This document shows, in pieces, positions 9,011-30,590 of a stretch of DNA of 64,000 nucleotides (the first letter of the stretch is position 1; each line of letters begins with the position of its first letter). The DNA comes from an uncultured Chloroflexia bacterium. GTDB taxonomy: Bacteria > Chloroflexota > Limnocylindria > Limnocylindrales > CSP1-4. Made by a program: the position numbers and the translations under genes. Where the stretch lies: contig CAWJQZ010000033.1 of the NCBI GenBank assembly GCA_963844945.1, positions 75,680 through 139,679 on the forward strand, given 5' to 3'. The notes under the pieces are model-generated. The model saw nothing but the letters and a program-made list of their open reading frames with translations. It searched no databases and was not told the origin of the DNA.

Positions 9011-9035
9011 TCGGCCCCCTCGCGTAACGGTCCAC

Positions 9036-9064: not shown

Positions 9065-9124
9065 GTGCTTTCACCGCCAGGGACCTCTTCCCACGCCACC
9101 ACCGAAGGTCCGGATCCCCCACCG

Positions 9125-10222: not shown

Positions 10223-10299
10223 GGCCGATCGCCCATGTCACCGACGCCGCGCGCCGCCAGCCGTCGCGCGATCGACGATCACCGCCTGAAGGAGGACCG

Positions 10300-10719: not shown

Positions 10720-10793
10720 CCCCGGGCCCCCATCCCCGACCCCCCGGCGCGCGTCCCGCGCGCGCCGCTGCCACGACACGAGTGAGGTACGAC

Positions 10794-12599: not shown

Positions 12600-12688
12600 G
12601 GCGTCCGACCACCGCCGGCCGGGATCGCCCGGCCGGCGGCCCCTGCCCCGGCACGAAGCCGAGGGCGACCGGCGACGGCACGTGAGGG

Positions 12689-14192
12689 ATGACCGTGACC
12701 GACCTGCTGCTCGGCGTGGACATCGGCACCGCGAGCTCCAAGGGCGTGCTCGCGCGGCCCGACGGGACGATCGTCGCGACGGCGCAGCGCCCGCACGACC
12801 TCTCGCTCCCGCGCCCGGGCTGGGCCGAGCACGATGGCGAGGCGATCTGGTGGGCCGACTTCGTCGCGATCGCCCGCGAGCTCGCCGGTGGCGGCCACGG
12901 CACGATCGCCGCGGTCGGCGTCAGCGGGATCGGCCCGGCGGTCCTCCCGGTGGACGAGGCCGGGCGGGCTCTGCGCCCGGCGATCCTCTACGGCATCGAC
13001 ACGCGCGCGATGGCCGAGGTCGAGGAGCAGACCGCGCTCTTCGGGGCCGACGCGATCCTCGCGCGCGGGGGCACGCTCCTCACCTCGCAGGCCGGCGGCC
13101 CCAAGCTCGCGTGGATCCGCCGGCACGAGCCCGGAGACGTGGGCGCGGACGCGCCGCTTCCACATGGCGAACTCGCTCGTCATCGAGCGTCTCACCGGCG
13201 AGTACGTCCTGGACCACCACTCGGCGAGCCAGTGCGACCCGCTGTACGACATGCGGACCGCGTCGTGGGCGGACGACTGGGCGGCGGAGGTCGTCCCCGG
13301 GCTCGCGCTGCCGCGCCTGGCCTGGTCGGACGAGGTGGTGGGCCGCGTGACCCCGGACGGCGCCGCCGCGACGGGGATCTCCGAGGGGACGCCCGTGGTC
13401 GCCGGGACGATCGACGCGTGGGCGGAGGCCCTGAGCGCCGGGGTCCGCGACCCGGGCGACACGATGCTCATGTACGGGACGACGATGTTCATCGTCGAGG
13501 TCGCCCGCGCGTTCCGGCCCGAGGCGACCCTCTGGAGCACCCAGGGCGTCTTCGCCGGGACCGTCACGTACGCCGCCGGGCTCTCGACCTCGGGCGGCCT
13601 CACCGTCTGGCTGCGCGACATCGTGGGGCGCGACTTCGCCGACCTCATCGACGAGGCGGCGGCGACACCCGCGGGAGCCGACGGCCTGGTCGTGCTCCCC
13701 TACTTCGGCGTCGCCCGATCCCCGATCTTCGACCCGCAGGCTCGCGGCGCGATCCTGGGGCTCACGCTCGCGCACGGCCGCGGCCACCTCTACCGCGCCC
13801 TCCTGGAGGGCTCCGCCTACGACGTCCGCCACAACCTCGAGGTGATGGCGGCGGCCGGCGCCGCGCCGGAGCGCCTCATGGCCGTGGGCGGCGGCACGAA
13901 GAGCGGGCTGTGGACCCGGGTCGTCTCCGACGTCACCGGCCTCCCGCAGACGATCCCGGCCGTGACGATCGGCGCGAGCTATGGCGACGCGCTCATGGCC
14001 GGGCGCGGCGCCGGGCTCGTGGCGCGGGATGCGCGATGGAACGCGCCGGCGGAGCTGCTCGAGCCGGATCCGGGCGTCGCGGCGACGTACGCGGAGCTCT
14101 ATCGGGTCTACCGGGATCTCTACCCGGCGACGCTGGACGCTGCGCACGCGCTCGCCGGCATGCAGGAGGCCGCGGCGGCCGAGGCGCGGTAG
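12689..14192 (+). pseudogene. FGGY-family carbohydrate kinase (probable L-fuculokinase by context) with one frame switch near 13131-13140
   Basis: The N-terminus is in ORF 12689..14332 (LLGVDIGTASSKGVLARPDG...PGWAEHDGEAIWW...GVSGIGPAVLPVD). The remainder is in ORF 12834..14192 (FHMANSLVIERLTGEY...GTIDAWAEALSAG...LPYFGVARSPIFDP...AVGGGTKSGLWTRVVSDVTG). Removing one G in ccgga at ~13133 restores HEPETWARTRRFHM. Confidence 0.8.
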
Positions 14193-14264
14193 GGAGCGAG
14201 GAGTCCGGGAGCGCGCGCCGGGTCGGAGGCCTTCGAGCGCCCGCCCGTCCGGCGCGCCCGCGCG

Positions 14265-15211
14265 TCAGGCGAGGCCGGCCGCGCGCATCTCCGCGAGCGT
14301 GGGCGGCTGCGCGCCTGCCCGCGTGCAGTTGATCGACGCGGCCGTGTTCGCGAACGTCAGCGCCGTCCGCAGGTCGTCCTCCGTCACGCCGCGGATCGCC
14401 GCCCGGTCCAGGCGCCCTGCCCGCTCGAGCCACGCGAGGAGCCCGGAGGTGAACGTGTCGCCCGCGCCGACCGTGTCCGAGACGGCGACCTGGATCCCCG
14501 GCACCTCGGCGCGCCCGGCGCCCGTGAGCGCGACCGCACCGTCGCCGCCGCGCGTCATCACGACCGCGGCCGGGCCACGGTCGAGCCAGGCGCGCGCCGC
14601 GGCCTCGGGAGCCGCATCCGGGTAGAGCCACTCGAGGTCCGCCTGGCTCACCTTCACGAGGTCCGCGAGCGAGACCCATCCCTCGAGCCGCTCGACGTAG
14701 GCGGCACGGTCGTGGATGAGGCCCGGGCCGGACGTTCGGGTCCAGGCTGACGAGGCGGCGGCCGTGCTCGCGGCGCATGAGCGACTCGTAGGCGCTGGCG
14801 CCGGGCTCGCGGAGCAGGGAGATCGACCCGAAGTGGAGCGCCGCGGATCGCATCCGGCAGCGTCGCGGGAACGTCCTCGACACGGAGGAGCCGGTCGGCC
14901 GCGCCCTCGTCGTGGAACGTGTAGACGGGCTCCGCCCCGCCCTCGAGGAAGACGATCGCGAGGGTCGAGGGCTCCGCGCCGTCGAGGACGAACCGGCAGT
15001 CGACGCCGTCCTCCTCGAGCTGGCGCCGCATCATCCGCCCGAACGGGTCCAGCGACAGGCGCCCGAAGAAGCCGACGGGCACCTCGAGCCGGCCGAGGCC
15101 CATCGCGACGTTGAACAGGGAGCCGCCGCACTTCGCCACGTAGGCGGGCTGTTCCGGGCTCGCCGGCAGCGGGACCATGTCGATGAGCGCCTCGCCGCAG
15201 ACCAGGATCAT
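14265..15211 (-). pseudogene. PfkB-family sugar kinase (fructokinase-like) with two frame switches
   Basis: The N-terminus is in ORF 14654..15211 (MILVCGEALIDMVP...KCGGSLFNVAMGLGRLEVPV). The middle is in the 13993..14883 frame (ALHFGSISLLREPGASAYESLMRRE). The C-terminus is in ORF 14265..15224 (VVMTRGGDGAV...VSDTVGAGDTFTSGLLAWL...FANTAASINCTRAGAQPP). Confidence 0.8.
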
Positions 15212-15354
15212 CCGACTCCCTCACGCTCGTTCTCGGGCGGGCGACGACCCATCCGGCGCGCGGCGAGCCGCGTGCCGGGGATGCGGCGCTCAGCCTCCAT
15301 CATCGCGCATCGTCGGGGCTCCCGGACCGCCACGGCGGACCCGCGGCCCGATCG

Positions 15355-16995
15355 GTGACCGTCATGTCCGAAACCCGCCAGCGCCCGTACGGCGCGCGTG
15401 TCATCCTCGGCCGCATGACCTCGCCGGCCGCCGATCCCGAGCTCTTCGACCGCCGATACCGTGCCGTCGCCAGCCGCGATCGGCGGTTCGACGGGTACTT
15501 CGTCACGGCGGTCACGACGACCGGCATCTACTGCCGGCCCAGCTGCCCCGCGAAGACGCCCGGCCGGGAGCGCGTCCGCTTCTACCCGACCGCCGCGGCG
15601 GCGCAGGGCGCCGGCTTCCGCGCGTGCAAGCGATGCCTCCCGGGCGCGGCGCCGGGCTCGCCCGACTGGGACCTCCGCGGCGACGTCGCCGGGCGCGCGA
15701 TGCGGCTGATCGACGAGGGCCTCGTGGAGCGGGAGGGCGTGCCGGAGCTGGCGCGGCGCCTCGGCTACGGCGAGCGGCAGCTGCGCCGCATCCTTCGCGC
15801 CGACCTGGGCGCCGGGCCGCTCGCGCTCGCCCGCGCGCAGCGGGCGGCCGTCGCGCGGCTCCTGCTGGAGACGACGGACCTGCCCGTCACGGAGGTCGCC
15901 TTCGCGGCCGGCTTCGCGTCGCTGCGCCAGTTCAACGACACGATCCGCGAGGTCCACGCCGCCACGCCGACGCAGCTGCGGGAGCACGGCAGGCGACGCA
16001 GGACGCTGCCCGAGGCGCGACCATCGGAGAACGACGACCCGGGCCGGCCCACGCGGCTGGCGCTCCGCCTCGCGCGCCGCGATCCCTTCGACTTCGGCGC
16101 GCTGCTCGCGTTCCTCGGGCCGCGGGCGATCCCCGGCGTCGAGTCGGTCGCCGGTGGCGCGTACCGGCGCAGCCTCCGCCTCCCGCACGGGCCCGGCCTC
16201 GCCGAGATGCGCGACGGCGACGGCGTGGTGGACTGCATGCTCGTCCTGGCGGACCCGCGGGACCTCGCCCCCGCGGTGGCGCGCATCCGCCGGCTGCTGG
16301 ACCTGGACGCGGACCCCGTGGCGGTCGGCGAGGCTCTCGGGGCGGACCCGGACCTGGGCCGTCTCGTCCGTGCCGCACCGGGCCGGCGTGCGCCCGGCGC
16401 CGTGGACGGCCTGGAGCTCGCGGTCCGCGCGATCGTCGGGCAGCAGATCTCGGTCGCGGCCGCCACGCGCATCGTCGGGCGGATCGCGGCGCGCCTGGGG
16501 ACGCCGCTCCCCACGCCGGCCGGCGACGTGACCCACCTGTTCCCGGGGCCGGCCCGCCTCGCCGATGCGGCCGACGCCGACCTCCCGGTCCCCGCCGCCC
16601 GGCGCGCGACGATCCGCGCGCTCGCCGCGGCCGTCGCCGACGGCCGGATCGACCTGGGGCCGGGGGCGGACCGCGATGAGGCGCGCGCCCGGCTCCTCGC
16701 GATCCCCGGCATCGGCCCGTGGACCGCCGGCTACATCGGCCTGCGGGCGCTGGCCGACCCCGACGTCCTCCTCGCGGGCGACCTGGGCGTGCGCCGGGCG
16801 GCCGCCCGGCTGGGCCTTCCCGACGACCCGGTCCGCCTCGCCGCGCACGGCACCCGCTGGGCGCCGTGGCGCTCGTACGCCACGCACCATCTCTGGGCGT
16901 CGCTCGGGGCCGTCGCGGCTTCGGCGGGCCCGTCGGCCGTCGCGCCGGACCCCGTGCCGTCGCCTGCGCCCACCCCGGCCCGGGCCGCCCGATGA
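15355..16995 (+). CDS. Ada-like regulatory domain / AraC HTH / AlkA DNA-3-methyladenine glycosylase II fusion
   Basis: ORF 15355..16995. It has an Ada Zn-binding N-terminus (FVTAVTTTGIYCRPSCPAKTP...FRACKRCLP), an AraC-type HTH (TEVAFAAGFASLRQFNDTIRE) and an HhH-GPD glycosylase domain (AIVGQQISVAAA...LLAIPGIGPWTAGYIGLRA). An alternative start is ATG 15415. Confidence 0.85.
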   Translation: MTVMSETRQRPYGARVILGRMTSPAADPELFDRRYRAVASRDRRFDGYFVTAVTTTGIYCRPSCPAKTPGRERVRFYPTAAAAQGAGFRACKRCLPGAAPGSPDWDLRGDVAGRAMRLIDEGLVEREGVPELARRLGYGERQLRRILRADLGAGPLALARAQRAAVARLLLETTDLPVTEVAFAAGFASLRQFNDTIREVHAATPTQLREHGRRRRTLPEARPSENDDPGRPTRLALRLARRDPFDFGALLAFLGPRAIPGVESVAGGAYRRSLRLPHGPGLAEMRDGDGVVDCMLVLADPRDLAPAVARIRRLLDLDADPVAVGEALGADPDLGRLVRAAPGRRAPGAVDGLELAVRAIVGQQISVAAATRIVGRIAARLGTPLPTPAGDVTHLFPGPARLADAADADLPVPAARRATIRALAAAVADGRIDLGPGADRDEARARLLAIPGIGPWTAGYIGLRALADPDVLLAGDLGVRRAAARLGLPDDPVRLAAHGTRWAPWRSYATHHLWASLGAVAASAGPSAVAPDPVPSPAPTPARAAR

Positions 16996-17475
16996 CCGTC
17001 TTCACCCGCCACCCGAGCCCGATCGGCGACCTGCTGCTGGTGGGCGAGCCCGTCCCGGACGGCGTCGCGCTGCGCGGCCTGTACATGGAGGGCCACCTGC
17101 GCGGCCCCGCGGTCGATCCGGCGTGGACGCGCGACGACGCCGGCGTTCGCCGCGGTGGCACGCGAGCTCGACGAGTACTTCGCCGGTCGACGCCGGGCGT
17201 TCGACCTCGTTCTCGCACCGGCGGGGACGCCCTTCCAGCTGGCCGTCTGGGAGGAGCTCCGCCGCATCCCGTTCGGCGGGACGACGACGTACGGGGAGCT
17301 CGCGCGACGGGTCGGCCGGCCCACGGCCGCGCGCGCGGTGGGAGCGGCGGTGGGGCGTAACCCGATCTCGATCATCGTCCCGTGTCACCGCGTGGTCGGG
17401 AGCGACGGTGCGCTCACCGGGTTCGCCGGCGGGCTCGACCGGAAACGCGCGCTCCTCGCGCTCGAGCGCGCCTGA
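16992..17475 (+). pseudogene. ogt: Methylated-DNA--protein-cysteine methyltransferase with one frame switch near 17140
   Basis: ATG 16992 overlaps the upstream stop (ATGA). The N-terminus [19 protein letters not shown]... is in the 16719 frame. The C-terminus is in ORF 17155..17475 and carries [26 protein letters not shown] and the active-site [13 protein letters not shown]. Confidence 0.85.
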
Positions 17476-17569
17476 GGCCGCCGCCGTCGGGCGTCCGCCC
17501 GGCCGCCGGTGCGCCGATCGCTTCGCCGGCGCCGCGCGAGGCCACGCGTCGACGCCTGCGCCGTGTCGC

Positions 17570-17597
17570 TGATAACGTTATCCTGTTAGCGTTATCA
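17570..17597. promoter_or_regulatory. Two abutting 14-bp LacI-type operator palindromes, with an overlapping candidate promoter
   Basis: TGATAACGTTATCC (17570-17583; its core GATAACGTTATC is a perfect palindrome) is followed directly by TGTTAGCGTTATCA (17584-17597). This is an AT-rich island in GC-rich DNA, 60 nt upstream of the LacI gene at 17657. A possible -35 TGATAA (17570-75) and -10 TATCAT (17593-98) with a 17-nt spacer would both be occluded by the operators. Confidence 0.5.
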
Positions 17598-17656
17598 TCC
17601 AGTACGGCGGCGGCCCGCACCGAGGCCGCCCGACCGGTCACACGCCAAGAGGTCGC

Positions 17657-18697
17657 ATGCCCACGCTCGTGGAGGTCGCCCGCCGCGCCGGCGTCGCGCC
17701 GATGACCGTCTCCCGCGTCGTCAACGACAGCGGCCCGGTCAGCGACGACGTGCGGGCGCGCGTCGAGAAGGCGATCGCGGAGACCGGGTACGTCCCCAAC
17801 GCCGTCGCGCGCAGCCTCCGCTCCAGCCGGACGCAGACGCTCGCCATCGTCGTCCCCGACCTGACCAACCCGTTCTTCACGACGATCGCATCCGGGGCAC
17901 AGGCCGCGGCGGCGGACGCCGGCCTCATGCTCGTCGTCGCCAACACGGACGAGCGGGCCGACGAGGAGGACCGGGTCCTCGGGATGCTCCTCCAGCGGCG
18001 CGTGGACGGGATCCTGCTGGTGGCGGCGGGCGACGGCGCGGATGCGATCCGCCGTGCGGCCGCACAGGGGACCCCGGTCGTGGCGGTCGACCGGCGCGTC
18101 CGCGGCCCCCGCCCCGACACGGTCCGGGCGGACTCCCGCGGCGGCGCGGCGGCGCTCGGGCGCCTGCTGGTCTCGCTCGGCCACCGCCGGATGGCGATCC
18201 TCGCCGGCCCGACGTCGGTCTCCACGTCGGCCGACCGCGTCGCGGGCTTCCGCAGGGCCCTCGCCGACGCCGGCATCGATGCCCCGCGCGTGCTGCACGG
18301 CGCGTACACGATCGAGAGCGGGCGCGCCATGGCGGCCGAGGCGATGCGGGCGACCGCCCGACCCACGGCGATCTTCGCGGCGAACAACTTCATCGCCATC
18401 GGCGTCCTCCACGCACTGGAGGCCGAGGGGATCCGCGTGCCCGAGGACGTCGCCGTCGTCGGGTTCGACGACCTCCCGCCGTCGATGGTCACCTTCCCGT
18501 TCCTCACGGTCGCGGCGCAGCCGGCGGACGAGATGGGCCGCCGTGCCGTCTCCCTCCTCCTCGACCGGATCGCGGACCCCGGCCGCGCGCCGCGCGAGAT
18601 CGTCCTCCCCACCGAGCTCATCGTCCGTCGATCCAGCGGTGGGCCGCTGGACGGCGCCCTCCACCCCCAGCCAGCAGGAAGAGGCACGACGGCATGA
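17657..18697 (+). CDS. LacI-family transcriptional regulator, first gene of the epimerase/kinase/cytidylyltransferase operon
   Basis: ORF 17657..18697. The HTH is MPTLVEVARRAGVAPMTVSRVVNDSGPVSDDVRARVEKAIAETGYVPNAVARSLRS, followed by an effector domain. Its stop overlaps the next ATG (ATGA at 18694-18697). Confidence 0.9.
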   Translation: MPTLVEVARRAGVAPMTVSRVVNDSGPVSDDVRARVEKAIAETGYVPNAVARSLRSSRTQTLAIVVPDLTNPFFTTIASGAQAAAADAGLMLVVANTDERADEEDRVLGMLLQRRVDGILLVAAGDGADAIRRAAAQGTPVVAVDRRVRGPRPDTVRADSRGGAAALGRLLVSLGHRRMAILAGPTSVSTSADRVAGFRRALADAGIDAPRVLHGAYTIESGRAMAAEAMRATARPTAIFAANNFIAIGVLHALEAEGIRVPEDVAVVGFDDLPPSMVTFPFLTVAAQPADEMGRRAVSLLLDRIADPGRAPREIVLPTELIVRRSSGGPLDGALHPQPAGRGTTA

Positions 18698-19757
18698 CCA
18701 GCGAGTACACGGACATCGTCCCCGGCACGACTCATCCGGCGCGGCCTCGCGAAGGACGACCTCATCGTCATCGCCGGCGCGGGCGGGTTCATCGCCGGCT
18801 CGTTGACGAGGTACTTCCACGACCAGGGGTTCACGCGGATCCGGGCGATCGACAGGAAGCCGCTCCCCGACTGGTACCAGCGGGTCCCCGGCGTCGAGTC
18901 GATCTCGATGGACCTCTCCCACGAGGAGAACGCCGATCGAGGCCGTGAAGGGCGCGACCGAGGTCTACAACCTCGCGGCCGACATGGGCGGGATGGGCTT
19001 CATCGAGAACTTCCGCGTGGAGTGCCTCCGCAGCGTCCTCGTCAACACGCACCTCATCGAGGCCGCCTGGCGCGCCGGCGCGACGCGCTACTTCTTCAGC
19101 TCGTCCGCGTGCGCGTACAACACCGACCTGCAGAAGGTCCCCACGGCGATCGCGCTGAAGGAGTCCGACGCCTACCCGGCGATGGCCGAGCGGGGCTACG
19201 GCTGGGAGAAGCTCATCAGCGAGATGTTCTGCCAGGAGTACACGGCGGAGCGCGGCCTCGAGACGCACATCGCACGGTTCCACAACATCTACGGCCCCAA
19301 CGGGACGTGGTTCGGCGGGCGCGAGAAGGCGCCCGCGGCGATGATCCGCAAGGTCCTCGAGGCGCAGGACTCCGGCGACATGCGGATCGAGATCTGGGGC
19401 GACGGGACCCAGACGCGGTCGTTCTGCTACATCCGCGACTGCGTGAGCGGGATCGACCGGATCATGCACACGCCGGAGCTCACCGCGACCCCGATCAACC
19501 TCGGCTCGTCCGAGCTCGTGTCGATCAACGAGCTCGTCTCGATCGTCGAGGAGATCGCGGGCGTGACGCTCGAGCGCTCGTACAAGCTCGACGCGCCGAA
19601 GGGCGTCGCGGGGCGCAACAGCGACAACACGTTCATCGAGCAGGTCCTCGGCTGGGAGCCGAACACGCCGCTCCGCGCCGGGATGGCCGAGACGTACGCG
19701 TGGATCGCCGACCAGTACGCGGCGCGCAAGGCCGGCAAGCGCGTCGTCGAGGGCTGA
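18694..19757 (+). pseudogene. Extended-SDR NAD-dependent epimerase, GDP-mannose 3,5-epimerase (GME)-like, with two frame switches near 18740 and 18940
   Basis: The gene must be assembled from three frames (18694, 18803, 18945). It carries the Rossmann motif IAGAGGFIAGSL. The stretches NLAADMGGMGFIE, FFSSSACAY, AYGWEKL, RFHNIYGPNGTWFGGREKAPAAMIRK, IWGDGTQTRSF and GVAGRNSDN closely parallel plant GME as I recall it (NLAADMGGMGFIQ, RFHNIYGPFGTWKGGREKAPAAFCRK, GVRGRNSDN). Confidence 0.8.
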
Positions 19758-19762
19758 TCCCG

Positions 19763-20565
19763 ATGACCGACGCGTCCGCGCGGCGCCCGACCTGTCGGGC
19801 GTCGTGGGCGGGCTCCCCTACCGGATCCAGCTCGCGGGCGGGTGGATCGACCAGCCGTTCGTCTCGCGCCTGGACCCGGAGCCGCCGGGGTCGATGGTCG
19901 TCGTCTCGCTCCTGCCGACCGTCCGGTACATGGACCGCTGCGGGATGGCGACGGGGACGCGGGCGGTGGCGCGCGCGCTCTGGGGCGACGCGCTGCCCGA
20001 GGGCCGGGACCCGGCCGACCTCGTCCGCGTCCTGTACGCGGCCGAGAACGAGGGCCGGGCCGACCCGTCCGGCTCGCAGGACATGTGCGGCATCGTCTAC
20101 CCGGGCGTGAGCCGGCTCGACTACGACGCGACCGTCGACGGCGGGTACTTCCCGTGCCACGTGGAGTCCACCTCCGACCCCGACGTCGTCGCGTGGCTGG
20201 AGCGCGTGCTGCACCTCGTGCCGGTCGCGCAGCGGCCGCCCGACTACAGCCCGCTGGGCGTCCAGCGGCTGGACCCGGCGTGGATCGCCCGCCTCGGGCG
20301 GAGCGGACGGGACTGCTACGACGCCATCGTCCGGCGGGACGTGGACGCGCTCGGCGCGTCGTTCACCGAGTGCTCGCTCGCGTGGGACGCCCTCCTCCCG
20401 GCGATCTTCGTCCACCCGACGATCACGATCGACCTGAAGGGGCTGCTCGCCGCGTACGCCTCCCGCTACCCGGGCGCGATGTACTCGGGCTGCGGCGGCG
20501 GCTACATCATCGTCGCGTCCGAGGACGCGGTGCCCGGCTCGTTCCGCGTGCGGGTCCGGGCATGA
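19763..20565 (+). pseudogene. Small GHMP-like sugar kinase (fucokinase/HddA-like motifs) with one frame switch near 19790; alternatively it starts at GTG 19804
   Basis: ATG 19763 lies 5 nt after the epimerase stop. The body is ORF 19804..20565. YRIQLAGGWIDQPF resembles the N-terminal (A)GGW.D.P motif of fucokinase-type GHMP kinases. GMATGTRA may be a degenerate motif 2, and MYSGCGGGYIIV resembles GHMP motif 3. At ~265 aa it is shorter than canonical members. Confidence 0.6.
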
Positions 20566-21431
20566 GCGCGGGGCCGGGCGCGCGCGGGGGCGGGCAGGCA
20601 CAGGCCGTCGTCGTCCAGGCGAGCCTCGACGACCTCACATCCGCCGACGTCAGGTTCCTGCAGGAGGCGGCGCGCCTGGGGCCGCTCCACGTGCGGATCC
20701 CGTCGGACGGGCTCGTGGAGCGCGAGACGGGCCGGCCGCCGCAGGTTCCCCGTCGCGGAGCGGCGCTTCCTCGCCGCGTCGCTCCGCTGCGTGGACGCTG
20801 TGAGCGTGGTGGAGGAGCACGACGCTCGCCGCGATGGCGGACCTCGCCCGCCGGTACGCGGACGCTCGTGGTGCGCGAGGGCGCCGCCGCGCCGGCCATC
20901 CGTGACGCGGCAGCGGCGCGCATGGGCTCGCGTGCACGGTCCTCGGCCCGGCGGACCTCGCGGGCTTCCCGGCGTGGGACGCGGACGAGCAGGAGGTCCG
21001 CCCACCCGGCGCCGGGCGACCCGCCGCGCGCGATCGTCACTGGCTGCTACGACTGGCTCCACTCGGGCCACCTCCGGTTCTTCATGGACGCCGCCGCCGT
21101 GGGGGAGCTGTACGTCGTCGTGGGCAGCGACCGCAACGTGGAGCTCCTCAAGGGACCGGGCCATCCGCTCCAGCACGAGGACGAGCGGCGGTACATGGTC
21201 GGCGCCGTGCGGTCCGTCCACCGCTGCCTCGTGTCGTCGGGGTCGGGGTGGATGGACGCGGAGCCGGAGATCGCGCAGATCCGTCCGCGCTTCTACGTGG
21301 TGAACGAGGACGGCGACCAGCCGGCGAAGCGCGAGTTCTGCCTGGAGAACGGCATCGAGTACGTCGTGCTGCGGCGGCTCCCCCACCCCGGCCTGCCAGC
21401 CCGCTCGAGCACCGACCTCCGCGGCTTCTGA
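20562..21431 (+). pseudogene. Tandem cytidylyltransferase-fold (CTP_transf_like) nucleotidyltransferase with at least 4 frame switches within 20740-21030
   Basis: ATG 20562 overlaps the kinase stop (ATGA). The N-terminal domain is degenerate (VVVQASLDDLTSADVRFLQEAARLG...RFPVAERRFLAASLRCVDAVSVVEE, with no HxGH). The C-terminal domain looks catalytic (AIVTGCYDWLHSGHLRFFMDAAAVGELYVVVGSDRNVELLKG...ERRYMVGAVRSVHRCLVS...YVVNEDGD...YVVL). The middle of the gene needs all three frames. Confidence 0.6.
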
Positions 21432-21583
21432 CGGGTCGGCGCGATGGGTCGGCCGACTCTCGGGTCCTGTCACGCGTACGCGGCCGGCGCGGCGCCCCCC
21501 GCTCGTGCGCGGCCGGCTCACCATCCGTCCCCGCGGGTGTGCGACGATCGTCGAGGGATCCCCCGGGGGCTGCAGGAGCCGGC

Positions 21584-22365
21584 ATGAGTCCGTTGGTCAA
21601 CGTCGAGGTCCAGGGTCCGATCGCGTGGATCACGATCGACAGCCCGCCCGTCAACGCCATCAACGTCGCGCTCATCGACGCGCTCTCCCTCGCGCTCGAC
21701 GGCCAGTCGCCGCCGGACGTGCGGGCGGTCGTCATCCGGTCGGTGCCCGGCGCCCACATCTGGTCGGCCGGCCACGACGTCCGCGAGCTCCCGACCGACG
21801 GTCGCGACCCGCTCACGTACAACGATCCGCTCCGGCGGGTGGTCCGCCGGATCGAGACCCACCCGCTCCCGGTCATCGCGATGGTCGAGGGGTCGGTGTG
21901 GGGCGGCGCCTGCGAGCTGGTCCTCGCGTGCGACCTCGTCGTGGCGTCGAACCAGGCGACCTTCGCCCTCACTCCGGCGCGCCTCGGGCGTCCCGTACAA
22001 CCTCTCGGGCGATGCTCAACCTCATGAAGGTCGCGGACATGCACTTCGTGAAGGAGATGCTCTTCACGGCCCGGCCCGTCCACGCGGCGCGGATGGCCGC
22101 GTACGGGGTCGTGAACGCCGTGGTCCCGGTCGAGGAGCTCGAGAGCACGACTGCGGATCTCGGCGCCGCCATCGCCGCCTCGTCGCCGCTGGTCATCCGG
22201 ATCATGAAGGAGGAGCTGCGCGTCCTCGCGAACGCGCACCCGCTGACGCCGGAGGCCTACGAGCGCATCCAGGCGCAGCGGCGCGAGGTGTACGACAGCG
22301 AGGACTACCAGGAGGGGATCCACGCCTTCCTGGAGAAGCGTCGCCCCGAGTTCCACGGCACCTGA
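21584..22365 (+). pseudogene. scpB: Crotonase-family methylmalonyl-CoA decarboxylase (ScpB/YgfG-like) with two closely spaced frame switches near 21985-22015
   Basis: ATG 21584 follows GCAGGAG. IWSAGHDVRELPTDGRDPLTYNDPLRRV...MVEGSVWGGACEL is in the 21248 frame. LGVPYNLSG is in a third frame. HFVKEMLFTARP...IMKEELRVL...ERIQAQRREVYDSEDYQEGIHAFLEKRRPEF is in the 21505 frame. All of this parallels E. coli ScpB as I recall it. Confidence 0.85.
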
Positions 22366-22797
22366 GACCCGCGCGCGAGACCGGCGCATGGACGACGAGC
22401 TCCCGCCCGCGGAGCAGGCACGCGACAGGCGACGCGATCGCCGCATCAGCGCGCGCGAGCGCGAGCTGATGCGGACCGGGTCCGCCAAGGTCTTCAAGCA
22501 GATCCTCGACACGCAGGAGAAGCGGGCCCGCGACGGCGAAGGGGCCGAGGACGATGGGCCTCACGAGGACCCGGCGGGCGATCCGCACGCCGGGGAGCGG
22601 CACCGGCGACGGTCACGGCCACGGGGCCGACCGGGACCGCTGAGCCCCGGGCCGCGGGCTCGGCGGCACCTGGGGCGCCCGGAGTGCACCGGCGGCGGGG
22701 CCAATCCGCGGCCGCCGGCCCCGCGAAGGGACGGGTGCAGCGGGGGGCGCGCCTCCCGCGCGGACCAAGTCGATCCTTCCCGGAGGCATCCCCTTCC

Positions 22798-23823
22798 ATG
22801 CCGAACCCCGCCGTCCTCGCCGAGGGGCTCGCCAAGTCGTATGGCACCGTCCGCGCCCTCCAGGGCGTGGACATGGAGGTCGCTGAGGGCACCGTCCTCG
22901 GCGTCCTCGGCCCCAACGGCGCGGGCAAGACCACCGCGGTACGCATCCTCGCGACGCTCCTGCGCCCCGACGCGGGGCGCGCGACCGTCGCCGGCCACGA
23001 CGTCGTCCGCGAGCCGGACGCCGTCCGCGCGTCCATCGGCCTCACCGGCCAGTACGCCGCCGTGGACGAGAACCTCACCGGCCGCGAGAACCTCGAGCTC
23101 GTGGGCCGCCTCCTGCACCTGGGCCGGGCCGAATCCCGGACGCGCGCCGACGAGCTGCTCGCCGGGTTCGACCTCTCCGATGCCGGCGGGCGACCGGCGC
23201 GCACCTACTCCGGCGGGATGCGCCGGCGCCTCGACCTCGCCGCGTCGCTCGTGGGCCGTCCGGCCGTCCTGTTCCTCGACGAGCCCACGACCGGCCTGGA
23301 CCCGGCGTCGCGGATCGCGCTGTGGGAGGTGGTGGAGACGCTCCGTCGCGACGGCACCACCATCCTCCTCACCACGCAGTACCTCGACGAGGCCGACCGC
23401 CTCGCCGACCGGATCGCGGTCATCGACGGCGGGCGCGTCATCGCCGAGGGGACCTCCACCGAGCTGAAGGACCGGCTGGGCGAGGACGTGGTGGACCTGC
23501 GCGTCGCCGACGCGTCCCGCACGGATGACGCCCTGGGCCTGCTCCGGGACCTGGCCGCGACCGAGCCGCGCGCCGACGTCGCGTCCGGACGGATCTCCCT
23601 CCCCGTCCACCATGGCGCAGGGATCCTCGCGGAGGTCGTCCGCCGGATCGACGGAGCCGGGCTCGAGGTCGCCGAGCTGTCGCTCCACCGGCCCAGCCTG
23701 GATGACGTCTTCCTCGCCCTCACCGGCCGGAGCGCCGAGGCCGCGGAGGCCGCGGCGGCGGAGGCCGCACCCACGCGGCGCCGGTTCGGGCGTCGCCGCA
23801 GCTCCACGGAGGCCGCCGCATGA
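22798..23823 (+). CDS. ABC transporter ATP-binding protein (DrrA-like, ABC-2 exporter type)
   Basis: ATG 22798 follows CGGAGG. It has Walker A GPNGAGKTT, the signature YSGGMRRRLDLA and Walker B LFLDEPTTGLD, plus the C-terminal extension typical of DrrA-type ATPases. Confidence 0.9.
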   Translation: MPNPAVLAEGLAKSYGTVRALQGVDMEVAEGTVLGVLGPNGAGKTTAVRILATLLRPDAGRATVAGHDVVREPDAVRASIGLTGQYAAVDENLTGRENLELVGRLLHLGRAESRTRADELLAGFDLSDAGGRPARTYSGGMRRRLDLAASLVGRPAVLFLDEPTTGLDPASRIALWEVVETLRRDGTTILLTTQYLDEADRLADRIAVIDGGRVIAEGTSTELKDRLGEDVVDLRVADASRTDDALGLLRDLAATEPRADVASGRISLPVHHGAGILAEVVRRIDGAGLEVAELSLHRPSLDDVFLALTGRSAEAAEAAAAEAAPTRRRFGRRRSSTEAAA

Positions 23824-24632
23824 GCGCCGCGATCGCCACCCGGTCGGCCCGGACGCCGTCCATCCGCCGGACCCCCACCTGGATCTTCACCGACTCCGTC
23901 AGCATCGCGTGGCGGAACATGCTCGCGGTCGTCCGCAACCCGCAGCTGCTCGTCATCGACACGGTGACGCCGATCATGTTCGTGCTGCTGTTCGCCTTCG
24001 TGTTCGGCGGCGCGATCAACGTCCCCGGCGGCTCGTACATCACCTTCCTCATGCCCGGGATCTTCGTCCAGACCGTCGTCTTCGGCGGGACCAACACCGC
24101 CGTCGGGCTCGCGGAGGACCTCCAGAAGGGCGTGATCGACCGGTTCCGGTCGCTGCCCATGGCCCCGTCCGCCGTGATGATCGGAAGGACGTTCGCCGAC
24201 CTCCTCCGCAACATCTACGTCGTCGCGATCATGACGGTCGTGGGCCTCGCGATCGGGTTCCGACCGACGGGCAGCCCGGCCGAGATCTTCCTCGCCCTCG
24301 CCCTCGTGGCGGCCTTCGGCTACGCGATCAGCTGGCTCTCTGCGAACGTCGGCCTGCGGGCGAAGTCCGCTGCAGCCGCGCAGGGCGCGATCTTCCTGCC
24401 GATCTTCCCCCTCACGTTCGTCTCGTCGGCCTTCGTGCCGATCGCGACGATGCCGACCTGGCTCCAGCCGATCGCCGAGGCGAACCCGGTGACGGTCGTC
24501 GTCAACGCCTCGCGCGGCCTCTTCCTCGGCGTCGCGGACGTGGGGATGGTGCTCGGCGCCGTGGCGTGGATCGTCGGACTCGTCGCGGTCTTCGCTCCGC
24601 TCGCGATCTGGAGCTACCGCAAGGCGCGCTGA
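23820..24632 (+). CDS. ABC-2 type transporter permease (DrrB-like)
   Basis: ORF 23820..24632, overlapping the ATPase stop (ATGA). It is a six-TM-like hydrophobic profile of ~270 aa. Confidence 0.85.
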   Translation: MSAAIATRSARTPSIRRTPTWIFTDSVSIAWRNMLAVVRNPQLLVIDTVTPIMFVLLFAFVFGGAINVPGGSYITFLMPGIFVQTVVFGGTNTAVGLAEDLQKGVIDRFRSLPMAPSAVMIGRTFADLLRNIYVVAIMTVVGLAIGFRPTGSPAEIFLALALVAAFGYAISWLSANVGLRAKSAAAAQGAIFLPIFPLTFVSSAFVPIATMPTWLQPIAEANPVTVVVNASRGLFLGVADVGMVLGAVAWIVGLVAVFAPLAIWSYRKAR

Positions 24633-24726
24633 GAGATCCGATGCGACCCCGCCGGAGAGGCGGATCGGACCCGGGCGGGCGGCGGACGAGGTCGTAGGCC
24701 CGCGCGGTCGCTGGTGCGGGTCCCGC

Positions 24727-25821
24727 CTACGGCGTCGGCGCCGCCCCCGGGAAGACCTGGCCGAACACCCCGTAGCGATCCACGGGGGTCGTCGGGTCGA
24801 ACATGTCGGGCGACCCGAGAAGCTCGAAGTAGCCCAGCCCGGCGTAACTCCCGGAACCCGTGTACCACATCGCGATGACGTCCCCGCCGTCGTCCAGGAT
24901 GCCCGAGCCGGTGCCCTGCCATGAGCCGTCCCCAGCCTCGAGGCGTGTGGGACCCCACTGCGTGCCGATCCCGAAGGAGTCGCCGGTCGCGCCCGTGAAG
25001 TGCGTCGTCCAGGACGGGGCGAGGTACGTTCCGCTGACACGGGGGTCGTTGACCTGGTCGATGCCCGCGTAGGTGTTGGTCCCGATGTCGACGTAGGTGT
25101 ACGCCGAGGTCCCCTCGACCACGCTCACCGGCCCGTAGGCGATCGCCGCGGGCGTCGCAGACGGGATGGGTACGGGAGTGTCCGAGGCGTTCGATGACGG
25201 CACGGGGCCGGTGACGGGCGGGAGGCCCGCCAGTTCCGGGGGATCGCCGGGGAAGATCAGGCCCCGTATCGCGTAGGGCTCCATGCCGGACCGCATCTCG
25301 AAGTAGCCGAGGCCGGCGTAACCGCCCGTCCCCTTGTACCAGGAGACGACGATGTCCCCGCGATCCGATGAGTAGACGCCGGAGCCCGTGCCCTCCCAGG
25401 CGCCGCCGGCGTTCTCGAGGCGCAGCGTTCCCCACTGGACGGCCGCGCCGTCGGTCGGGCCCGACCCCCAGACGCGCAGCGTCCACGGGCTCGACGTCGC
25501 CGTGCCGCTGACGCGGGGGTCGTCGGTCGACGCGGTGCACGCCAGGTCCGTGGTGATGACGCTCTCCTCGTCGGGATCCTTCCACCACATGTCGGCCAGG
25601 CCCACGCAGGTGGCCGTACCGGCGACCGGGGTGTCGTCCGCGACCACGGCCGGCGTCGCCGATGCCGTGGACGCCGGGGGAGCCGTCGCCAGTGGAGCGA
25701 CGCTCGCAGGGGCAGGTGTCGCCGGCGACGGAGCGACGGTCGCCTCAGCGCCACATCCGCTCAGCACGCCCACCATAGCCAGACCAGCGAGGAGCCGCGT
25801 CGTCGAGGACCGCCCGCGCAT
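24727..25821 (-). CDS. Lipoprotein of unknown function containing two tandem copies of an unrecognised ~140-aa domain
   Basis: The internal start ATG 25821 gives MRGRSSTTRLLAGLAMVGVLSGC (lipobox LSGC). Repeat 1 is DDPRVSGTATSSPWTLRVWG...QWGTLRLENAGGAWEGTGSGVYSSDRGDIVVSWYKGTGGYAGLGYFEM...LIFPGDPP. Repeat 2 is NDPRVSGTYLAPSWTTHFTG...QWGPTRLEAGDGSWQGTGSGILDDGGDVIAMWYTGSGSYAGLGYFEL...QVFPGAAP. Confidence 0.75.
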   Translation of the reverse strand: MRGRSSTTRLLAGLAMVGVLSGCGAEATVAPSPATPAPASVAPLATAPPASTASATPAVVADDTPVAGTATCVGLADMWWKDPDEESVITTDLACTASTDDPRVSGTATSSPWTLRVWGSGPTDGAAVQWGTLRLENAGGAWEGTGSGVYSSDRGDIVVSWYKGTGGYAGLGYFEMRSGMEPYAIRGLIFPGDPPELAGLPPVTGPVPSSNASDTPVPIPSATPAAIAYGPVSVVEGTSAYTYVDIGTNTYAGIDQVNDPRVSGTYLAPSWTTHFTGATGDSFGIGTQWGPTRLEAGDGSWQGTGSGILDDGGDVIAMWYTGSGSYAGLGYFELLGSPDMFDPTTPVDRYGVFGQVFPGAAPTP

Positions 25822-26135
25822 TCCGACCCCCTGGGATGCCCATCCTGCCGGTCCGTCTCGCCCGTGGCTCGGCGCGGCCCCGGCGGCAGGCATCGGGGCC
25901 GTGCGTCACAGCTGCCCCGCGTCGAGCGCGACGATGTGCGTCACGCCGCGGGCCGCAAGTGCCGGAGGTCGTCGCCAACGGCGCGGAGGCTGCCGCGCGC
26001 GGCACCGGACCGCCCACCAGGGGTCCCCGTACCCAGACGGGCCGCGGGGTCGGCGCGCGGACCCGGACCGACCGCCCTGCTTCGTCCCGAGCTGCCGACC
26101 GGCATGGGCGACGTGACGACACGGCCGGATCCGCG

Positions 26136-27950
26136 TCAGCCTCCGTTCAGCGCCGAGATCGTGACCCAGACCGAGCCGTCGGGAGCCACCGCCACGCCCG
26201 CCGCGCGCCCGCCCACGTCGATGGTGCGCAGCACCGCGAGCGACGATGGGTCGAGCGCGAGCACCTGGTGGCCGTCGCCGTTCGCGACGTACACGCCGCT
26301 CGCGTCCACGGCGATGCCGGTGAGCGTCGGGGCGACCGTCGCCGCCACCGGCGTCACCGACGGCTCGCCCACGCGCGCGACCTGGCCGGCGGCATAGGCG
26401 ACCCAGAGGTCGCCGTCGAACGATGCGAGGCCGGTGGCGGGGCCGGAGGCGCCGGTCGGGGTCACGTGGGTCGTCATGCCGCTGTCGCGGTCGAAGGCGG
26501 ACAGTGCGGGCGAATCCACGTGCGACGCCCAGATCGTCGGCCCGACGAAGGCCATGGGGCCGGTCCCCGGGAAGGGGTGGGCGGAGGGGGTGAGCGAGAG
26601 ACAGACGGTCGTTCCGGCGTAGTAGCCGGAGTTGCACACCATCCGGACCAAGTCGACCGCCGGGTCGATCTGGACGACCGATCCCTTCGGGCGCTGCAGG
26701 AAGACCGACGCGTTCGCAGTGCGCTTGTATAGCGGATCCCTCACGAGCTGGCCCGTGTGCCGGTTCGAGACCCAGACGTGGCCCTGGTCCTCCGCGATGC
26801 CCGCGTACTCTCCCGTCGCGTCCGTGAACCAGTAGATCAACCGGGGCGTCGGGAACAGGTCCTGCAGCCGTGCGAGGTCGTCAGCAGAGATGAACCCCTC
26901 GCCCTCGCCGGGGAGCTTGTCGGTCCCAAGGACCGCCGCGGTGGCGAGGTCGATGGTCGTGAGGAGGCCGTCGGGGCCATCGAGGACGTGGAGGGCGTCC
27001 GTGCCGGCGGACATCGCCGTGACGGGGTCGGCGCTCGCGCCCCCGACGCCGACGGTGGCGAAGGCGACGCCGGTGGAGGCATCGAGCGCGGTGACCGTCC
27101 GGTCGCCCGCGTTCGCGACCCACATCCGCCCGGCGGCCGACAGGATGAGCGACGGATCCCGCCCCGTCGGGTACGCGGCGACGACGCAGCCGCGCGCGGG
27201 GTCGATCCGCGCGACGACGTCCGCGGTGTCGGGGCCGAGGACGAGGCAGTCCACGGGGCGTGTGACCGTCCAGGCGGCGGCGCCCGCGACGAGGAGGACG
27301 ACCGCGGCGGCGACGGCGAGCACGGCCCGCCGGCGATGCGCCGCGAGCCGGCGGCGGAGGTGCGCCAGCCTGCTCGCAGGGACGGCCTCCACCCGGTAGA
27401 GGGCGACCCCGCCGTGGATCCCCTTGAGCGGCTGGGTCCCGAGGGGCACGAACCCATACGGGAGCATCGTCCGGGTGATCGCGCGGACGGTGTCGGTGAC
27501 GAGGACCTCGCCCGCCTGGGCTCTCGCGCACACCCGGGCGGCGATGTTCACCGCACCGCCGACGGGGCCCTCCCCCGTGGCGATCGTCTCGCCCGCGTGG
27601 ATCCCGACCCCGACGTGCATCGGCCGCTCGGCGGTGCTCGCGGCCCCCGCGGCGTCGACGATCGCGAGCCCCGCCTCGACCGCCGCCGACGCGGTGGGGA
27701 AGACGACGTAGACGCTGTCGCCCTCGGTGCGGATCTCGGCGCCCGCGTGGCTCGCGACCGCGGCGCGGACGAGGGCGCGGTACGTCGCGAGCAGCTCCGC
27801 CGCGGCGTGGTCGCCGTGCGCGTCGACGAAGGCCGCGTACCCGCGCAGGTCGCAGAAGAGAAAGCCGTTCGTCCCCGCCGAGCCGGTCGCCACGTCGGCC
27901 CCCCGTGCAGGGCGCGCGGACCGCGCGCCCCGGTGTCGTGCCGCGAGCAT
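26136..27950 (-). CDS. Membrane-anchored class III adenylate/guanylate cyclase with an extracytoplasmic beta-propeller-like domain
   Basis: Internal ATG 27950 of ORF 26136..28772. The cyclase homology domain reads FLFCDLRGYAAFVDAHGD...EIRTEGDSVYVVFP...VGVGIHAGETI...GGAVNIAARVCARAQAGEVLVTDTV. It is followed by one TM helix (AVLAVAAAVVLLVAGAAAW), then ~380 aa of repeats such as MWVANAGDRTVTALD, VWVSNRHTGQLV, LWVAYAAGQVARV, VYVANGDGHQVLALD and VWVT, which look YVTN/NHL-like. Confidence 0.85.
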   Translation of the reverse strand: MLAARHRGARSARPARGADVATGSAGTNGFLFCDLRGYAAFVDAHGDHAAAELLATYRALVRAAVASHAGAEIRTEGDSVYVVFPTASAAVEAGLAIVDAAGAASTAERPMHVGVGIHAGETIATGEGPVGGAVNIAARVCARAQAGEVLVTDTVRAITRTMLPYGFVPLGTQPLKGIHGGVALYRVEAVPASRLAHLRRRLAAHRRRAVLAVAAAVVLLVAGAAAWTVTRPVDCLVLGPDTADVVARIDPARGCVVAAYPTGRDPSLILSAAGRMWVANAGDRTVTALDASTGVAFATVGVGGASADPVTAMSAGTDALHVLDGPDGLLTTIDLATAAVLGTDKLPGEGEGFISADDLARLQDLFPTPRLIYWFTDATGEYAGIAEDQGHVWVSNRHTGQLVRDPLYKRTANASVFLQRPKGSVVQIDPAVDLVRMVCNSGYYAGTTVCLSLTPSAHPFPGTGPMAFVGPTIWASHVDSPALSAFDRDSGMTTHVTPTGASGPATGLASFDGDLWVAYAAGQVARVGEPSVTPVAATVAPTLTGIAVDASGVYVANGDGHQVLALDPSSLAVLRTIDVGGRAAGVAVAPDGSVWVTISALNGG

Positions 27951-28131
27951 CCGCCGTGCCGGAACGGTGCTACAAGGGCCGGATGGCGTGGCCGGGGGAC
28001 GGGGGTCGGCGCCAGGAGACGAGCAATTCCCCCGCCAGGCAGGGCGCGTCGGTCTCCTCCAGCCGCGGAAGCGTATCCACGGAGTCCCGGATGAGGCAGC
28101 CATGGTCGGGTCGAGCGCGGACCCGACCGCC

Positions 28132-28772: not shown

Positions 28773-28892
28773 CCACCGATGGTAGTGGTCGCGGCCGCCT
28801 CCCCGACATCGGGGATGCCGCCGTGCCGTCGGGGCGACGTCGCCTGGCCCTGCTCGCGGCCCGCCGCGCCCGCAGCGGGCAAGAATTCCCGC

Positions 28893-30550: not shown

Positions 30551-30590
30551 CGCCGGGCCGGCCCGGCACCGGGGCCGCCGGCAGTCGGCC

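Follow-up and report, generated by a model that had tools for sequence, protein, structure and literature searches.

What does a four-gene cassette encoding a LacI-family repressor, an epimerase, a kinase-like protein (X), and a tandem cytidylyltransferase-fold protein (CT) do, and which sugar does it handle? The cassette occupies positions 17570-21431 of the 64-kb stretch of contig CAWJQZ010000033.1 analyzed here (73.6% G+C; hereafter, the window). Our comparisons favored, with a probability of roughly 55%, a Leloir-type role in which an L-fuco-configured hexose, most probably L-galactose, would be led via a sugar 1-phosphate and a nucleotide sugar to GDP-mannose. They supported the interpretation of the system as a nucleotide-sugar salvage or Leloir-type pathway, organized around a kinase family without a domain model and an unusual transferase, and indicated that it is widespread. 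A route from L-galactose to a nucleoside diphosphate-D-mannose had already been put forward in an initial annotation made from the letters alone, and the L-galactose to GDP-mannose reading was strengthened by the sequence comparisons described below.

Organization of the operon

The control region and the genes are arranged as follows (window coordinates).

17570-17583: putative LacI-type operator O1, TGATAACGTTATCC, a 14-bp palindrome with a central CG
17584-17597: putative LacI-type operator O2, TGTTAGCGTTATCA, a 14-bp palindrome abutting O1
17569-17598, plus strand: candidate sigma70-like promoter by consensus match, with the -35 element CTGATA at 17569-17574, an 18-nt spacer, and the -10 element TATCAT at 17593-17598
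17657-18697, plus strand: lacI-family repressor gene, intact, 346 aa
18694-19757, plus strand: GDP-mannose 3,5-epimerase-like extended short-chain dehydrogenase/reductase (SDR) gene, 353 aa when intact, two frame disruptions
19763-20565, plus strand: kinase-like gene X, short GHMP-superfamily, fucokinase-like, putative anomeric sugar kinase, 267 aa, one frame disruption
20562-21431, plus strand: tandem cytidylyltransferase-fold gene CT, putative sugar-1-phosphate nucleotidylyltransferase, 287 aa, five frame disruptions

The two operators form a direct repeat of 14 nt at a spacing of 14 nt and are the sole matches to TGATAACGTTATCA with up to three mismatches in the whole window, where 0.08 would be expected by chance; none of 100 shuffled sequences gave two. 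Both are kept, at positions 983 and 997, in the public metagenome contig ENA ERZ25039503 contig_115991 (L001), whose LacI orthologue shares 93% identity with the repressor encoded here. The candidate promoter overlaps both operators and was the only sigma70-like match between positions 17300 and 21700 (0.1 expected in shuffled sequences). In Pfam, the LacI protein matched the LacI helix-turn-helix domain (PF00356; 2.9e-17, residues 3-48) and Peripla_BP_1 (PF00532; 4e-44, residues 60-322). The stop codon of lacI and the start codon of the epimerase gene overlap in ATGA at 18694-18697, the TGA of the epimerase gene ends at 19757, separated by a 5-nt gap (19758-19762) from the ATG of X at 19763, and X and CT again overlap in ATGA at 20562-20565, with the last stop codon at 21429-21431. 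No leader RNA or riboswitch was detected with Rfam, as no family reached the gathering score on either strand of the whole window. The order lacI-epimerase-X-CT most likely represents a single operon, which would be repressed by LacI and thereby autoregulated. Both the abutting operators and the chain of four overlapping or nearly overlapping genes had been described in the initial annotation and were recovered, the first gene of the chain being lacI itself.

The GDP-mannose 3,5-epimerase-type enzyme

By its sequence, the protein encoded after lacI is a GDP-mannose 3,5-epimerase-type extended SDR. It matched the plant GDP-mannose 3,5-epimerases in PDB (8sg0 and 2c59) at E values of about 1e-77 over residues 24-346, with approximately 50% identity, and the next-best family (MoeE5, 1e-24) was far behind. 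The signature stretches from which this identity had initially been proposed were conserved: in the alignment, the Arabidopsis enzyme has SSACIY, YGLEKL, and GGREKAPAA where the cassette enzyme has SSSACAY, YGWEKL, and GGREKAPAA, and the GVxGRNSDN stretch of the GDP-specific plant enzymes is kept as well. The roles of the catalytic cysteine, lysine, and tyrosine have been described for this family (PMC6678494), and in our reading, the SSSAC, YxxxK, and GGREK stretches would hold the Ser/Cys, Tyr/Lys, and Lys catalytic residues, respectively. The only characterized bacterial GDP-mannose 3,5-epimerase, GM35E of Methylacidiphilum fumariolicum, lies in a glycosyltransferase and methyltransferase context that was read as lipopolysaccharide (LPS) synthesis (PMC6678494). 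Compared by description, GM35E differs from the cassette enzyme in that no kinase or cytidylyltransferase partners were reported for it.

The kinase-like protein X

Direct searches gave no placement for X, which had no match in Pfam or NCBIfam and nothing significant in PDB by sequence (best E value, 0.038). Its family comprises more than 6,600 proteins at E values of at most 1e-3 in a 90%-identity collection, all of them unnamed or annotated as "hypothetical", and 750 clusters in a 50%-identity collection. The assignment of X to the GHMP superfamily and its connection to FKP, the L-fucokinase/GDP-L-fucose pyrophosphorylase of Bacteroides fragilis (PDB 5yys and 9iip), came from a fused paralogue and a wider family profile. 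In three loci (L056, L068, and L052), a paralogue with 31-34% identity to X is fused behind a single cytidylyltransferase domain, and this paralogue matched the Bacteroides FKP fucokinase in phmmer (E value, 1e-9) at the AGGW.D.P and GAGGGGY motifs. The narrow X-family profile (A1) reached FKP at an E value of only 1.1, at the AGGWID motif; the wider-family profile (A2) gave E values of 1.9e-16 for FKP, 3.8e-7 for a heptose kinase, and about 5e-4 for WcbL and mevalonate kinases. When the AlphaFold2 (AF2) model of X was used as a query in Foldseek, the top 50 PDB matches were all GHMP kinases (best E value, 4e-3; template modeling [TM] score, 0.44), led by heptokinases (WcbL, 4usk; 3k85) and including the fucokinase part of FKP. 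These three lines agreed with the initial annotation, in which X had been called a short GHMP protein with a fucokinase-like AGGW.D.P motif.

FKP phosphorylates L-fucose, L-galactose, and D-arabinose, and its sugar-binding and catalytic residues are R592, W599, D601, Q761, and the general base D762 (PMC11982464). The residues R21, W28, D30, Q106, and D107 of X, invariant in 34 sequences, were read by eye as the respective counterparts of these five; HMMER alignments pair FKP with the fused paralogue and with profile A2, and the correspondence was carried to X by eye via RIxLAGGW.D.P and GSQD. GHMP motif III, typically GAGGGG-like, reads SGCGGGY in X, invariant in the family, and KLSGAGGGGY in the paralogues. 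Matches to the Pfam model GHMP_kinases_C were confined to distant fused relatives (P0230, 29.1 bits; cut-off, 21). With 267 aa, X falls about 100 residues short of the kinase part of FKP, a chain of 361-419 residues, and because it is so much shorter and its direct similarity to FKP is not significant, we regard the two as related but separate families. Judged from these comparisons, X is a member of a distinct, shortened GHMP family whose nearest characterized relative is FKP, an L-fuco-specific anomeric kinase.

The likeness to FKP, the nearest solved relative, extends beyond the recurring Arg/Trp/Asp/Gln/Asp motifs to the coupling of the kinase with a sugar-1-phosphate nucleotidylyltransferase, since X paralogues are also fused to a transferase, and to L-galactose, which FKP accepts and which is the presumed substrate of the cassette. 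In addition to the shorter length of X and its lack of a Pfam model, the differences concern the transferase, which has an NTP_transferase/beta-helix fold in FKP and a cytidylyltransferase fold in the cassette, the obligate epimerase partner of the cassette, and the biological setting, which is glycan decoration for FKP and would be repressor-controlled sugar utilization for the cassette.

The tandem cytidylyltransferase-fold protein

The initial annotation had described CT as a tandem protein with a degenerate first domain, reminiscent of ethanolamine-phosphate cytidylyltransferase, and profile comparison, motif counts, and fold matching all upheld this view. The Pfam family PF01467 matched the C-terminal half only (3e-10, residues 161-253), and BLASTP gave no match between the N- and C-terminal halves. 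When 49 orthologues were used in hhalign, the two halves aligned over 124 columns with a probability of 99.9, an E value of 1.2e-32, and 35% identity. Each CT contains a single HxGH motif, which was always located in the second domain (49 of 49 orthologues) and reads HSGH in nearly all of them, together with a conserved RSST.LRGF tail; the corresponding first domain reads FDDLRS..VRFLEEA.

The AF2 model of CT (predicted local distance difference test [pLDDT] score, 90.6) had only one full-length fold match, human ethanolamine-phosphate cytidylyltransferase (Pcyt2/ECT; PDB 4xsv and 3elb), with a TM-score of 0.70 over about 300 columns, and the tandem folds of that enzyme likewise form a pseudo-dimer. 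In contrast to CT, whose first domain is devoid of HxGH, ECT keeps this motif in both halves; furthermore, it is eukaryotic, acts on a phospho-alcohol, and shares 17-18% identity with CT. CT is an architectural analogue of this enzyme and not its orthologue. On sequence and model grounds, CT consists of a cytidylyltransferase fold duplicated within one chain, has an architecture like that of ethanolamine-phosphate cytidylyltransferase, and carries a degenerate first domain. Its single-domain fold matches included heptose-1-phosphate adenylyltransferase HldC, TagD, and Fom1, and since HldC is among them, the fold is known to act on sugar 1-phosphates.

In the wider X superfamily, cytidylyltransferase domains are fused to X-like domains many times. 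The architectures found (proteins P0163, P0230, P0180, P0179, and P0138 were examined) were RhaM L-rhamnose mutarotase-CT-X, PNP_UDP_1 phosphorylase-CT-X, tandem CT-X, GT2-X, and TcdA/TcdB-type glycosyltransferase-X. The CT-X fusions, which resemble FKP and HldE in joining a kinase to a nucleotidyltransferase, tie X and CT together functionally as kinase and nucleotidyltransferase. This suggests a general module composed of an L-sugar kinase and a cytidylyltransferase-fold activase, used in both salvage and glycosylation.

Conservation of the cassette and its neighbors

A genome scan with the X alignment yielded 551 confirmed loci, and 82 loci were analyzed, namely the best 80 of the 551 together with the metagenome contigs L001 and L002, a sample biased to close relatives. 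The best 80 belong to Chloroflexota, Verrucomicrobiota, Planctomycetota, Latescibacterota, Acidobacteriota, Armatimonadota, and Victivallales, and the operon is conserved in at least seven bacterial phyla. The Chloroflexota loci were Limnocylindrales-like or from Anaerolineae, including the cultured Anaerolinea thermolimosa IMO-1. Of the 79 loci with room for it, 76 have the epimerase gene directly upstream of X; the tandem CT gene follows directly downstream in 63 of 78, and a LacI orthologue (at least 45% identity) was present within 4 kb in 38 of 82. The operator motif, with the consensus TGGTAACGTTACCA, was found upstream of the first cassette gene (lacI or the epimerase gene) in 25 of 82 loci. 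These counts substantiated the LacI gating asserted in the initial annotation, as well as the epimerase-X-CT trio as a conserved neighborhood, which had been left there as a point to be checked in other genomes.

Recurrent neighbors were identified by clustering of open reading frames (ORFs) and Pfam checks, and their counts are approximate, as they depend on a crude ORF caller, a filter on third-position G+C (GC3), and single-linkage clustering.

ManC-type mannose-1-phosphate guanylyltransferase: 15 loci, right after the cassette
Type I phosphomannose isomerase: 4 loci, inside or adjoining the cassette
GH29 alpha-L-fucosidase: 8 loci, directly upstream of the epimerase gene
RbsD/FucU mutarotases of two types: 10 and 7 loci, nearby
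L-fucose isomerase FucI: 9 loci, nearby
Ribose-type ATP-binding cassette (ABC) transporter: 15 loci, nearby

No glycosyltransferase or export gene was found among the recurrent neighbor clusters inspected (representatives of clusters 4-18 and ten others), and no GmhA or GmhB was recognized among them. In L068, the order is LacI, operator, ABC ATPase, permease, binding protein, epimerase, X, CT, ManC, and FucU.

Several loci showed individual features. The phosphomannose isomerase genes are those of L004 (10724-11716; PF20511, 30 bits), L010, L023, and L075, and that of L023 lies between CT and ManC. In A. thermolimosa IMO-1 (L028; NZ_DF967965.1, 3228006-3244776), LacI, GH29, epimerase, X, and CT stand in a row, an apparent GH2-type glycosidase, recognized by eye, lies downstream on the opposite strand, and the first domain of CT carries a partial motif, FDNLHAREV; in the record, a long stretch of the next gene is masked as N. 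In L035, L051, and L068 (cluster 34; Chloroflexota/Anaerolineae), a GH65 hydrolase/phosphorylase (697 aa) and MalG-type ABC components are encoded upstream of the cassette.

A second, paralogous mini-cassette was observed in L056 (4412-6602), L068 (11790-12968), and L052 (5563-6717, minus strand). It encodes the 384-392-aa fusion of one cytidylyltransferase domain and an X-like kinase domain, in which the GHMP motifs are more canonical; in L056, the next gene encodes a second SDR of the GDP-mannose 3,5-epimerase-like type, with 44% identity. The presence of a paralogous kinase/transferase/epimerase set in the same loci implies that another sugar is handled by a parallel pathway, and hence that there are at least two different substrates.

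Surroundings in the window

The initial annotation had located the cassette inside an L-fucose/L-rhamnose utilization island. This did not hold: the cassette lies beside it, about 5 kb downstream of an L-fucose-type cluster (1366-15221), with about 2.3 kb of unrelated sequence between them. The genes of this region are as follows.

1366-3252, minus strand: FGGY kinase
3149-4114, minus strand: DeoR regulator
5259-6869: ABC ATPase
7586-9007: sugar-binding protein
9065-10219: second LacI paralogue
10782-12596: L-fucose isomerase FucI
12689-14329: FGGY_N fragment, probably frame-disrupted
14265-15221, minus strand: PfkB kinase

The operator motif of the cassette does not occur in the fucose cluster. 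Since L-fucose already has FucI and FGGY kinase genes in the window, the cassette would be dispensable for fucose catabolism. Just upstream of the operators, an ORF at 17155-17475 ends in PCHRVV...GGL and, by eye, looks like a methylated-DNA-protein-cysteine methyltransferase; Pfam gave no match for the longer, overlapping ORFs at 15177-16676 and 16565-17569.

Proposed pathway and competing functions

In the proposed pathway, the sugar would, in related loci, be imported by an ABC transporter or released by a GH29 alpha-L-fucosidase/galactosidase, and its beta anomer would be supplied by a FucU-type mutarotase. The short GHMP kinase X would phosphorylate it at O1. CT, a presumed pseudo-dimer whose only live site lies in the second domain, would then combine the sugar 1-phosphate with a nucleoside triphosphate, probably GTP, to give a nucleoside diphosphate (NDP)-L-sugar, which the GDP-mannose 3,5-epimerase-type enzyme would epimerize at C3 and C5 to GDP-D-mannose. 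From there, ManC, phosphomannomutase, and phosphomannose isomerase would lead to fructose-6-phosphate. LacI, bound to the two promoter-overlapping operators, would be released by the sugar or a phosphorylated intermediate.

We infer L-galactose as the substrate, GTP as the nucleotide, and a catabolic direction, together with the LacI effector just described. L-Galactose is favored over L-fucose because its product would be GDP-mannose, with ManC and phosphomannose isomerase present in some cassettes, because we know of no catabolic fate for GDP-D-rhamnose (GDP-6-deoxy-mannose), and because the same genomes have FucI and FGGY kinase genes for fucose. In its most extended form, the proposal is a second Leloir-type pathway, present in many phyla rich in polysaccharide degraders, that would feed L-galactose into glycolysis via L-galactose-1-phosphate, GDP-L-galactose, and GDP-D-mannose. 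Its kinase would come from a GHMP family that had lacked a model, its transferase would be the first sugar-1-phosphate guanylyltransferase with a cytidylyltransferase fold, a pseudo-dimer in which one half is dead, and its control would fall to a dedicated LacI with a conserved operator. We put this extended form forward tentatively, at somewhat less than even odds.

A number of observations count against the L-galactose pathway. The three enzyme genes are frame-disrupted as assembled in the window. ManC and phosphomannose isomerase accompany the cassette in only 15 and 4 of the 82 loci, respectively, were not found near the cassette in this window, and fit de novo synthesis of GDP-L-galactose equally well. 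The Pfam model GHMP_kinases_N was never matched by X, and its ATP/phosphate loop (motif II, typically PxGSGLGSSAA-like) is divergent, reading CGMATGTR where the paralogues have GMASSTR, so the kinase activity of X is itself deduced. The AF2 model of X is mediocre (pLDDT, 63 overall, with a poor N-terminal half) and was kept out of residue-level claims. The epimerase family and ManC are GDP-specific, and to our knowledge, no cytidylyltransferase-fold enzyme uses GTP. The sugar-specific neighbors all belong to "fucose" families (GH29, FucU, and FucI), and sequence is unable to separate L-galactose from L-fucose, as FKP makes no contact with the C6 group of its sugar (PMC11982464).

An anabolic role, although unlikely, has to be weighed first. 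The operon would in that case supply GDP-L-galactose or GDP-L-fucose for surface glycans, de novo from GDP-mannose through the epimerase and by salvage through X and CT, much as Gmd/Fcl and FKP do in Bacteroides. FKP is a salvage enzyme that feeds fucosyltransferases (PMC11982464), and GM35E adjoins a glycosyltransferase in an anabolic context (PMC6678494). Distant members of the X family are fused to glycosyltransferases (P0180 and P0179), and the ManC and phosphomannose isomerase of some cassettes would suit forward synthesis of GDP-mannose. However, control by a LacI repressor with a conserved operator argues against such a role, as do the recurrent neighbors, which comprise fucosidase, mutarotases, FucI, and uptake transporters without any glycosyltransferase or export gene in the inspected clusters. 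The published equilibrium of GDP-mannose 3,5-epimerase also lies on the GDP-mannose side.

It is quite improbable that the mechanism proposed for L-galactose is correct and serves another substrate or nucleotide, for example L-fucose converted via NDP-L-fucose to NDP-6-deoxy-D-mannose (D-rhamnose), D-arabinose or L-gulose, or CDP- or ADP-sugars. The restriction of the sugar-specific neighbors to the L-fucose family would fit L-fucose, for which FKP has an approximately 100-fold preference over L-galactose (PMC11982464). The mini-cassettes of L056, L068, and L052 speak for at least two substrates. Known cytidylyltransferase-fold enzymes use CTP or ATP, which would fit another nucleotide. Nevertheless, the absence of a catabolic fate known to us for GDP-D-rhamnose and the FucI and FGGY kinase genes that already cover L-fucose in the window disfavor L-fucose, the ManC and phosphomannose isomerase of some cassettes suggest mannose as the product, and the epimerase, with its GVxGRNSDN stretch, is about 50% identical to GDP-specific plant enzymes.

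Frame disruptions

Measured against L001, the three enzyme genes carry eight frame disruptions within about 2.3 kb, consistent with the initial count of at least seven, and lacI is intact. They are located at about 18729-18734 (net +1) and 18933 (+1) in the epimerase gene, at 19786 (-1) in X, and at 20741 (+1), 20817 (+1), 20859 (+1), 20912 (+2), and 21008 (+1) in CT (net +6); some of them are other than simple homopolymer length changes. Three-frame translation and tblastn with intact orthologues showed the epimerase spread over frames 1, 2, and 3, the first 8 codons of X in another frame, and CT passing through several frames and ending back in its starting frame.

L001 is 97.8% identical to window positions 17569-30565, the flank upstream of the cassette being only 87.8% identical, and in it none of the four genes is disrupted and their order is unchanged (346, 353, 267, and 287 aa). 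A total of 45 indels separate the window from L001, in same-direction clusters along the whole 13 kb. The run of about 14 indels between 28836 and 30502 (L001 12231-13911) consists wholly of deletions in the window, and nine of them, each of 1 nt, at 29875-30502 interrupt a FAD_binding_2/Succ_DH_flav_C gene that L001 has complete. Conversely, at 21505-22365, the window has a longer enoyl-CoA hydratase gene than L001, in which the counterpart is broken. Both assemblies appear to carry clustered indel errors. Because the genes are intact in L001 and indel clusters affect unrelated genes of both assemblies, the disruptions in the cassette are probably assembly noise.

That the three enzyme genes are instead true pseudogenes in this organism, the operon being a decaying relic of a family that works elsewhere, seems very doubtful. 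The density of eight disruptions beside an intact lacI and their partial departure from plain homopolymer length changes would be in keeping with decay. On the other hand, the shifted segments have stayed highly conserved in amino acids (such as a 273-residue segment of the epimerase, at 98% in tblastn), the 97.8%-identical contig has all four genes whole, the same-direction clusters also break unrelated window genes (29875-30502), and the enoyl-CoA hydratase gene is broken in L001 and not in the window. The initial annotation had raised dead genes as a case that would overturn its reading, and the related contig speaks against this.

Comparison with known pathways

The cassette resembles the Leloir pathway (GalK/GalT/GalE) in the sequence of an anomeric kinase, nucleotide activation, and epimerization of a nucleotide sugar to a sugar of central metabolism, and in the placement of the operon under a LacI-family repressor, as with GalR/GalS. 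It differs in the proposed chemistry, with a double 3,5-epimerization instead of a 4-epimerization, a presumed GDP-sugar instead of a UDP-sugar, and a presumed L-sugar substrate. The initial annotation had stated that every enzyme belongs to a family other than those of GalK, GalT, and GalE. This stands for the transferase, since CT would be an HxGH-fold pyrophosphorylase and GalT is a HIT-type exchange enzyme. It is too strong for the other two, as GalK is a GHMP kinase like X and GalE an extended SDR like the cassette epimerase, so that superfamilies are shared and the cassette enzymes represent non-orthologous subfamilies.

With the plant Smirnoff-Wheeler pathway, the cassette shares the epimerase family (GME, about 50% identity) and would share the intermediates GDP-mannose, GDP-L-galactose, L-galactose-1-phosphate, and L-galactose. 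The cassette would run in the opposite direction, with a kinase and a pyrophosphorylase in place of the phosphatase (VTC4) and the GDP-L-galactose phosphorylase (VTC2), and it has no link to ascorbate.

The bacterial routes for L-galactose that we found in the literature were oxidative only. Those of Phocaeicola vulgatus and Luteolibacter LG18 share with the cassette the presumed substrate and some phyla (Verrucomicrobiota), but they proceed through a dehydrogenase, L-galactonate, D-tagaturonate, and 2-keto-3-deoxygluconate (KDG) without a nucleotide sugar (PMC12632266). This study of L-galactose catabolism, published in 2025, cites no routes other than oxidative ones and makes no mention of GDP (PMC12632266). 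Neither this cassette nor a bacterial GDP-sugar route for L-galactose was found described in a literature search whose coverage left out subscription journals and in which the phrase "3,5-epimerase" could not be matched; the author of the initial annotation was likewise not aware of such a pathway in bacteria.

The ADP- and GDP-heptose pathways (HldE or HldA/HldC/HldD; HddA/HddC) also combine a sugar kinase, a cytidylyltransferase-fold enzyme (HldC), and an SDR epimerase. A nucleotide-heptose pathway of this kind, with HddA/WcbL, HldC, and HldD as counterparts, can be dismissed as extremely unlikely: although GHMP heptokinases are the top fold matches of the X model, HldC is among the fold matches of CT, and the best NCBIfam match of CT is rfaE domain II, the scores lie far below the family cut-offs (TIGR02199, 68 against 181.5 bits; PRK11316, 48.9 against 521; the heptose epimerase model TIGR02197, 42 against 274.6), profile A2 ranks FKP above the heptokinase, the epimerase is of the GDP-mannose 3,5-epimerase type and not the HldD type, and the inspected neighbors are of the fucose catabolic type with no recognizable GmhA or GmhB. 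The initial annotation had named a placement of X and CT in a characterized unrelated pathway as a possible refutation, and the homology searches gave no such placement.

Implications

If the L-galactose pathway is correct, central carbohydrate metabolism would include a nucleotide-sugar route for L-galactose that is chemically parallel to the Leloir pathway. The X family, with its thousands of proteins and no Pfam or NCBIfam model, would gain a function, and the bacterial GDP-mannose 3,5-epimerases, so far tied only, and speculatively, to LPS or antibiotic synthesis, would gain a physiological role. The substrates of the cytidylyltransferase fold would be extended to L-sugar 1-phosphates. GDP-L-galactose has been named as scarce and costly (PMC6678494), and an enzyme set interconverting L-galactose, GDP-L-galactose, and GDP-mannose would be useful for making L-sugars and GDP-sugar donors. 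Since A. thermolimosa IMO-1 is a cultured carrier of the cassette, the hypothesis is directly testable.

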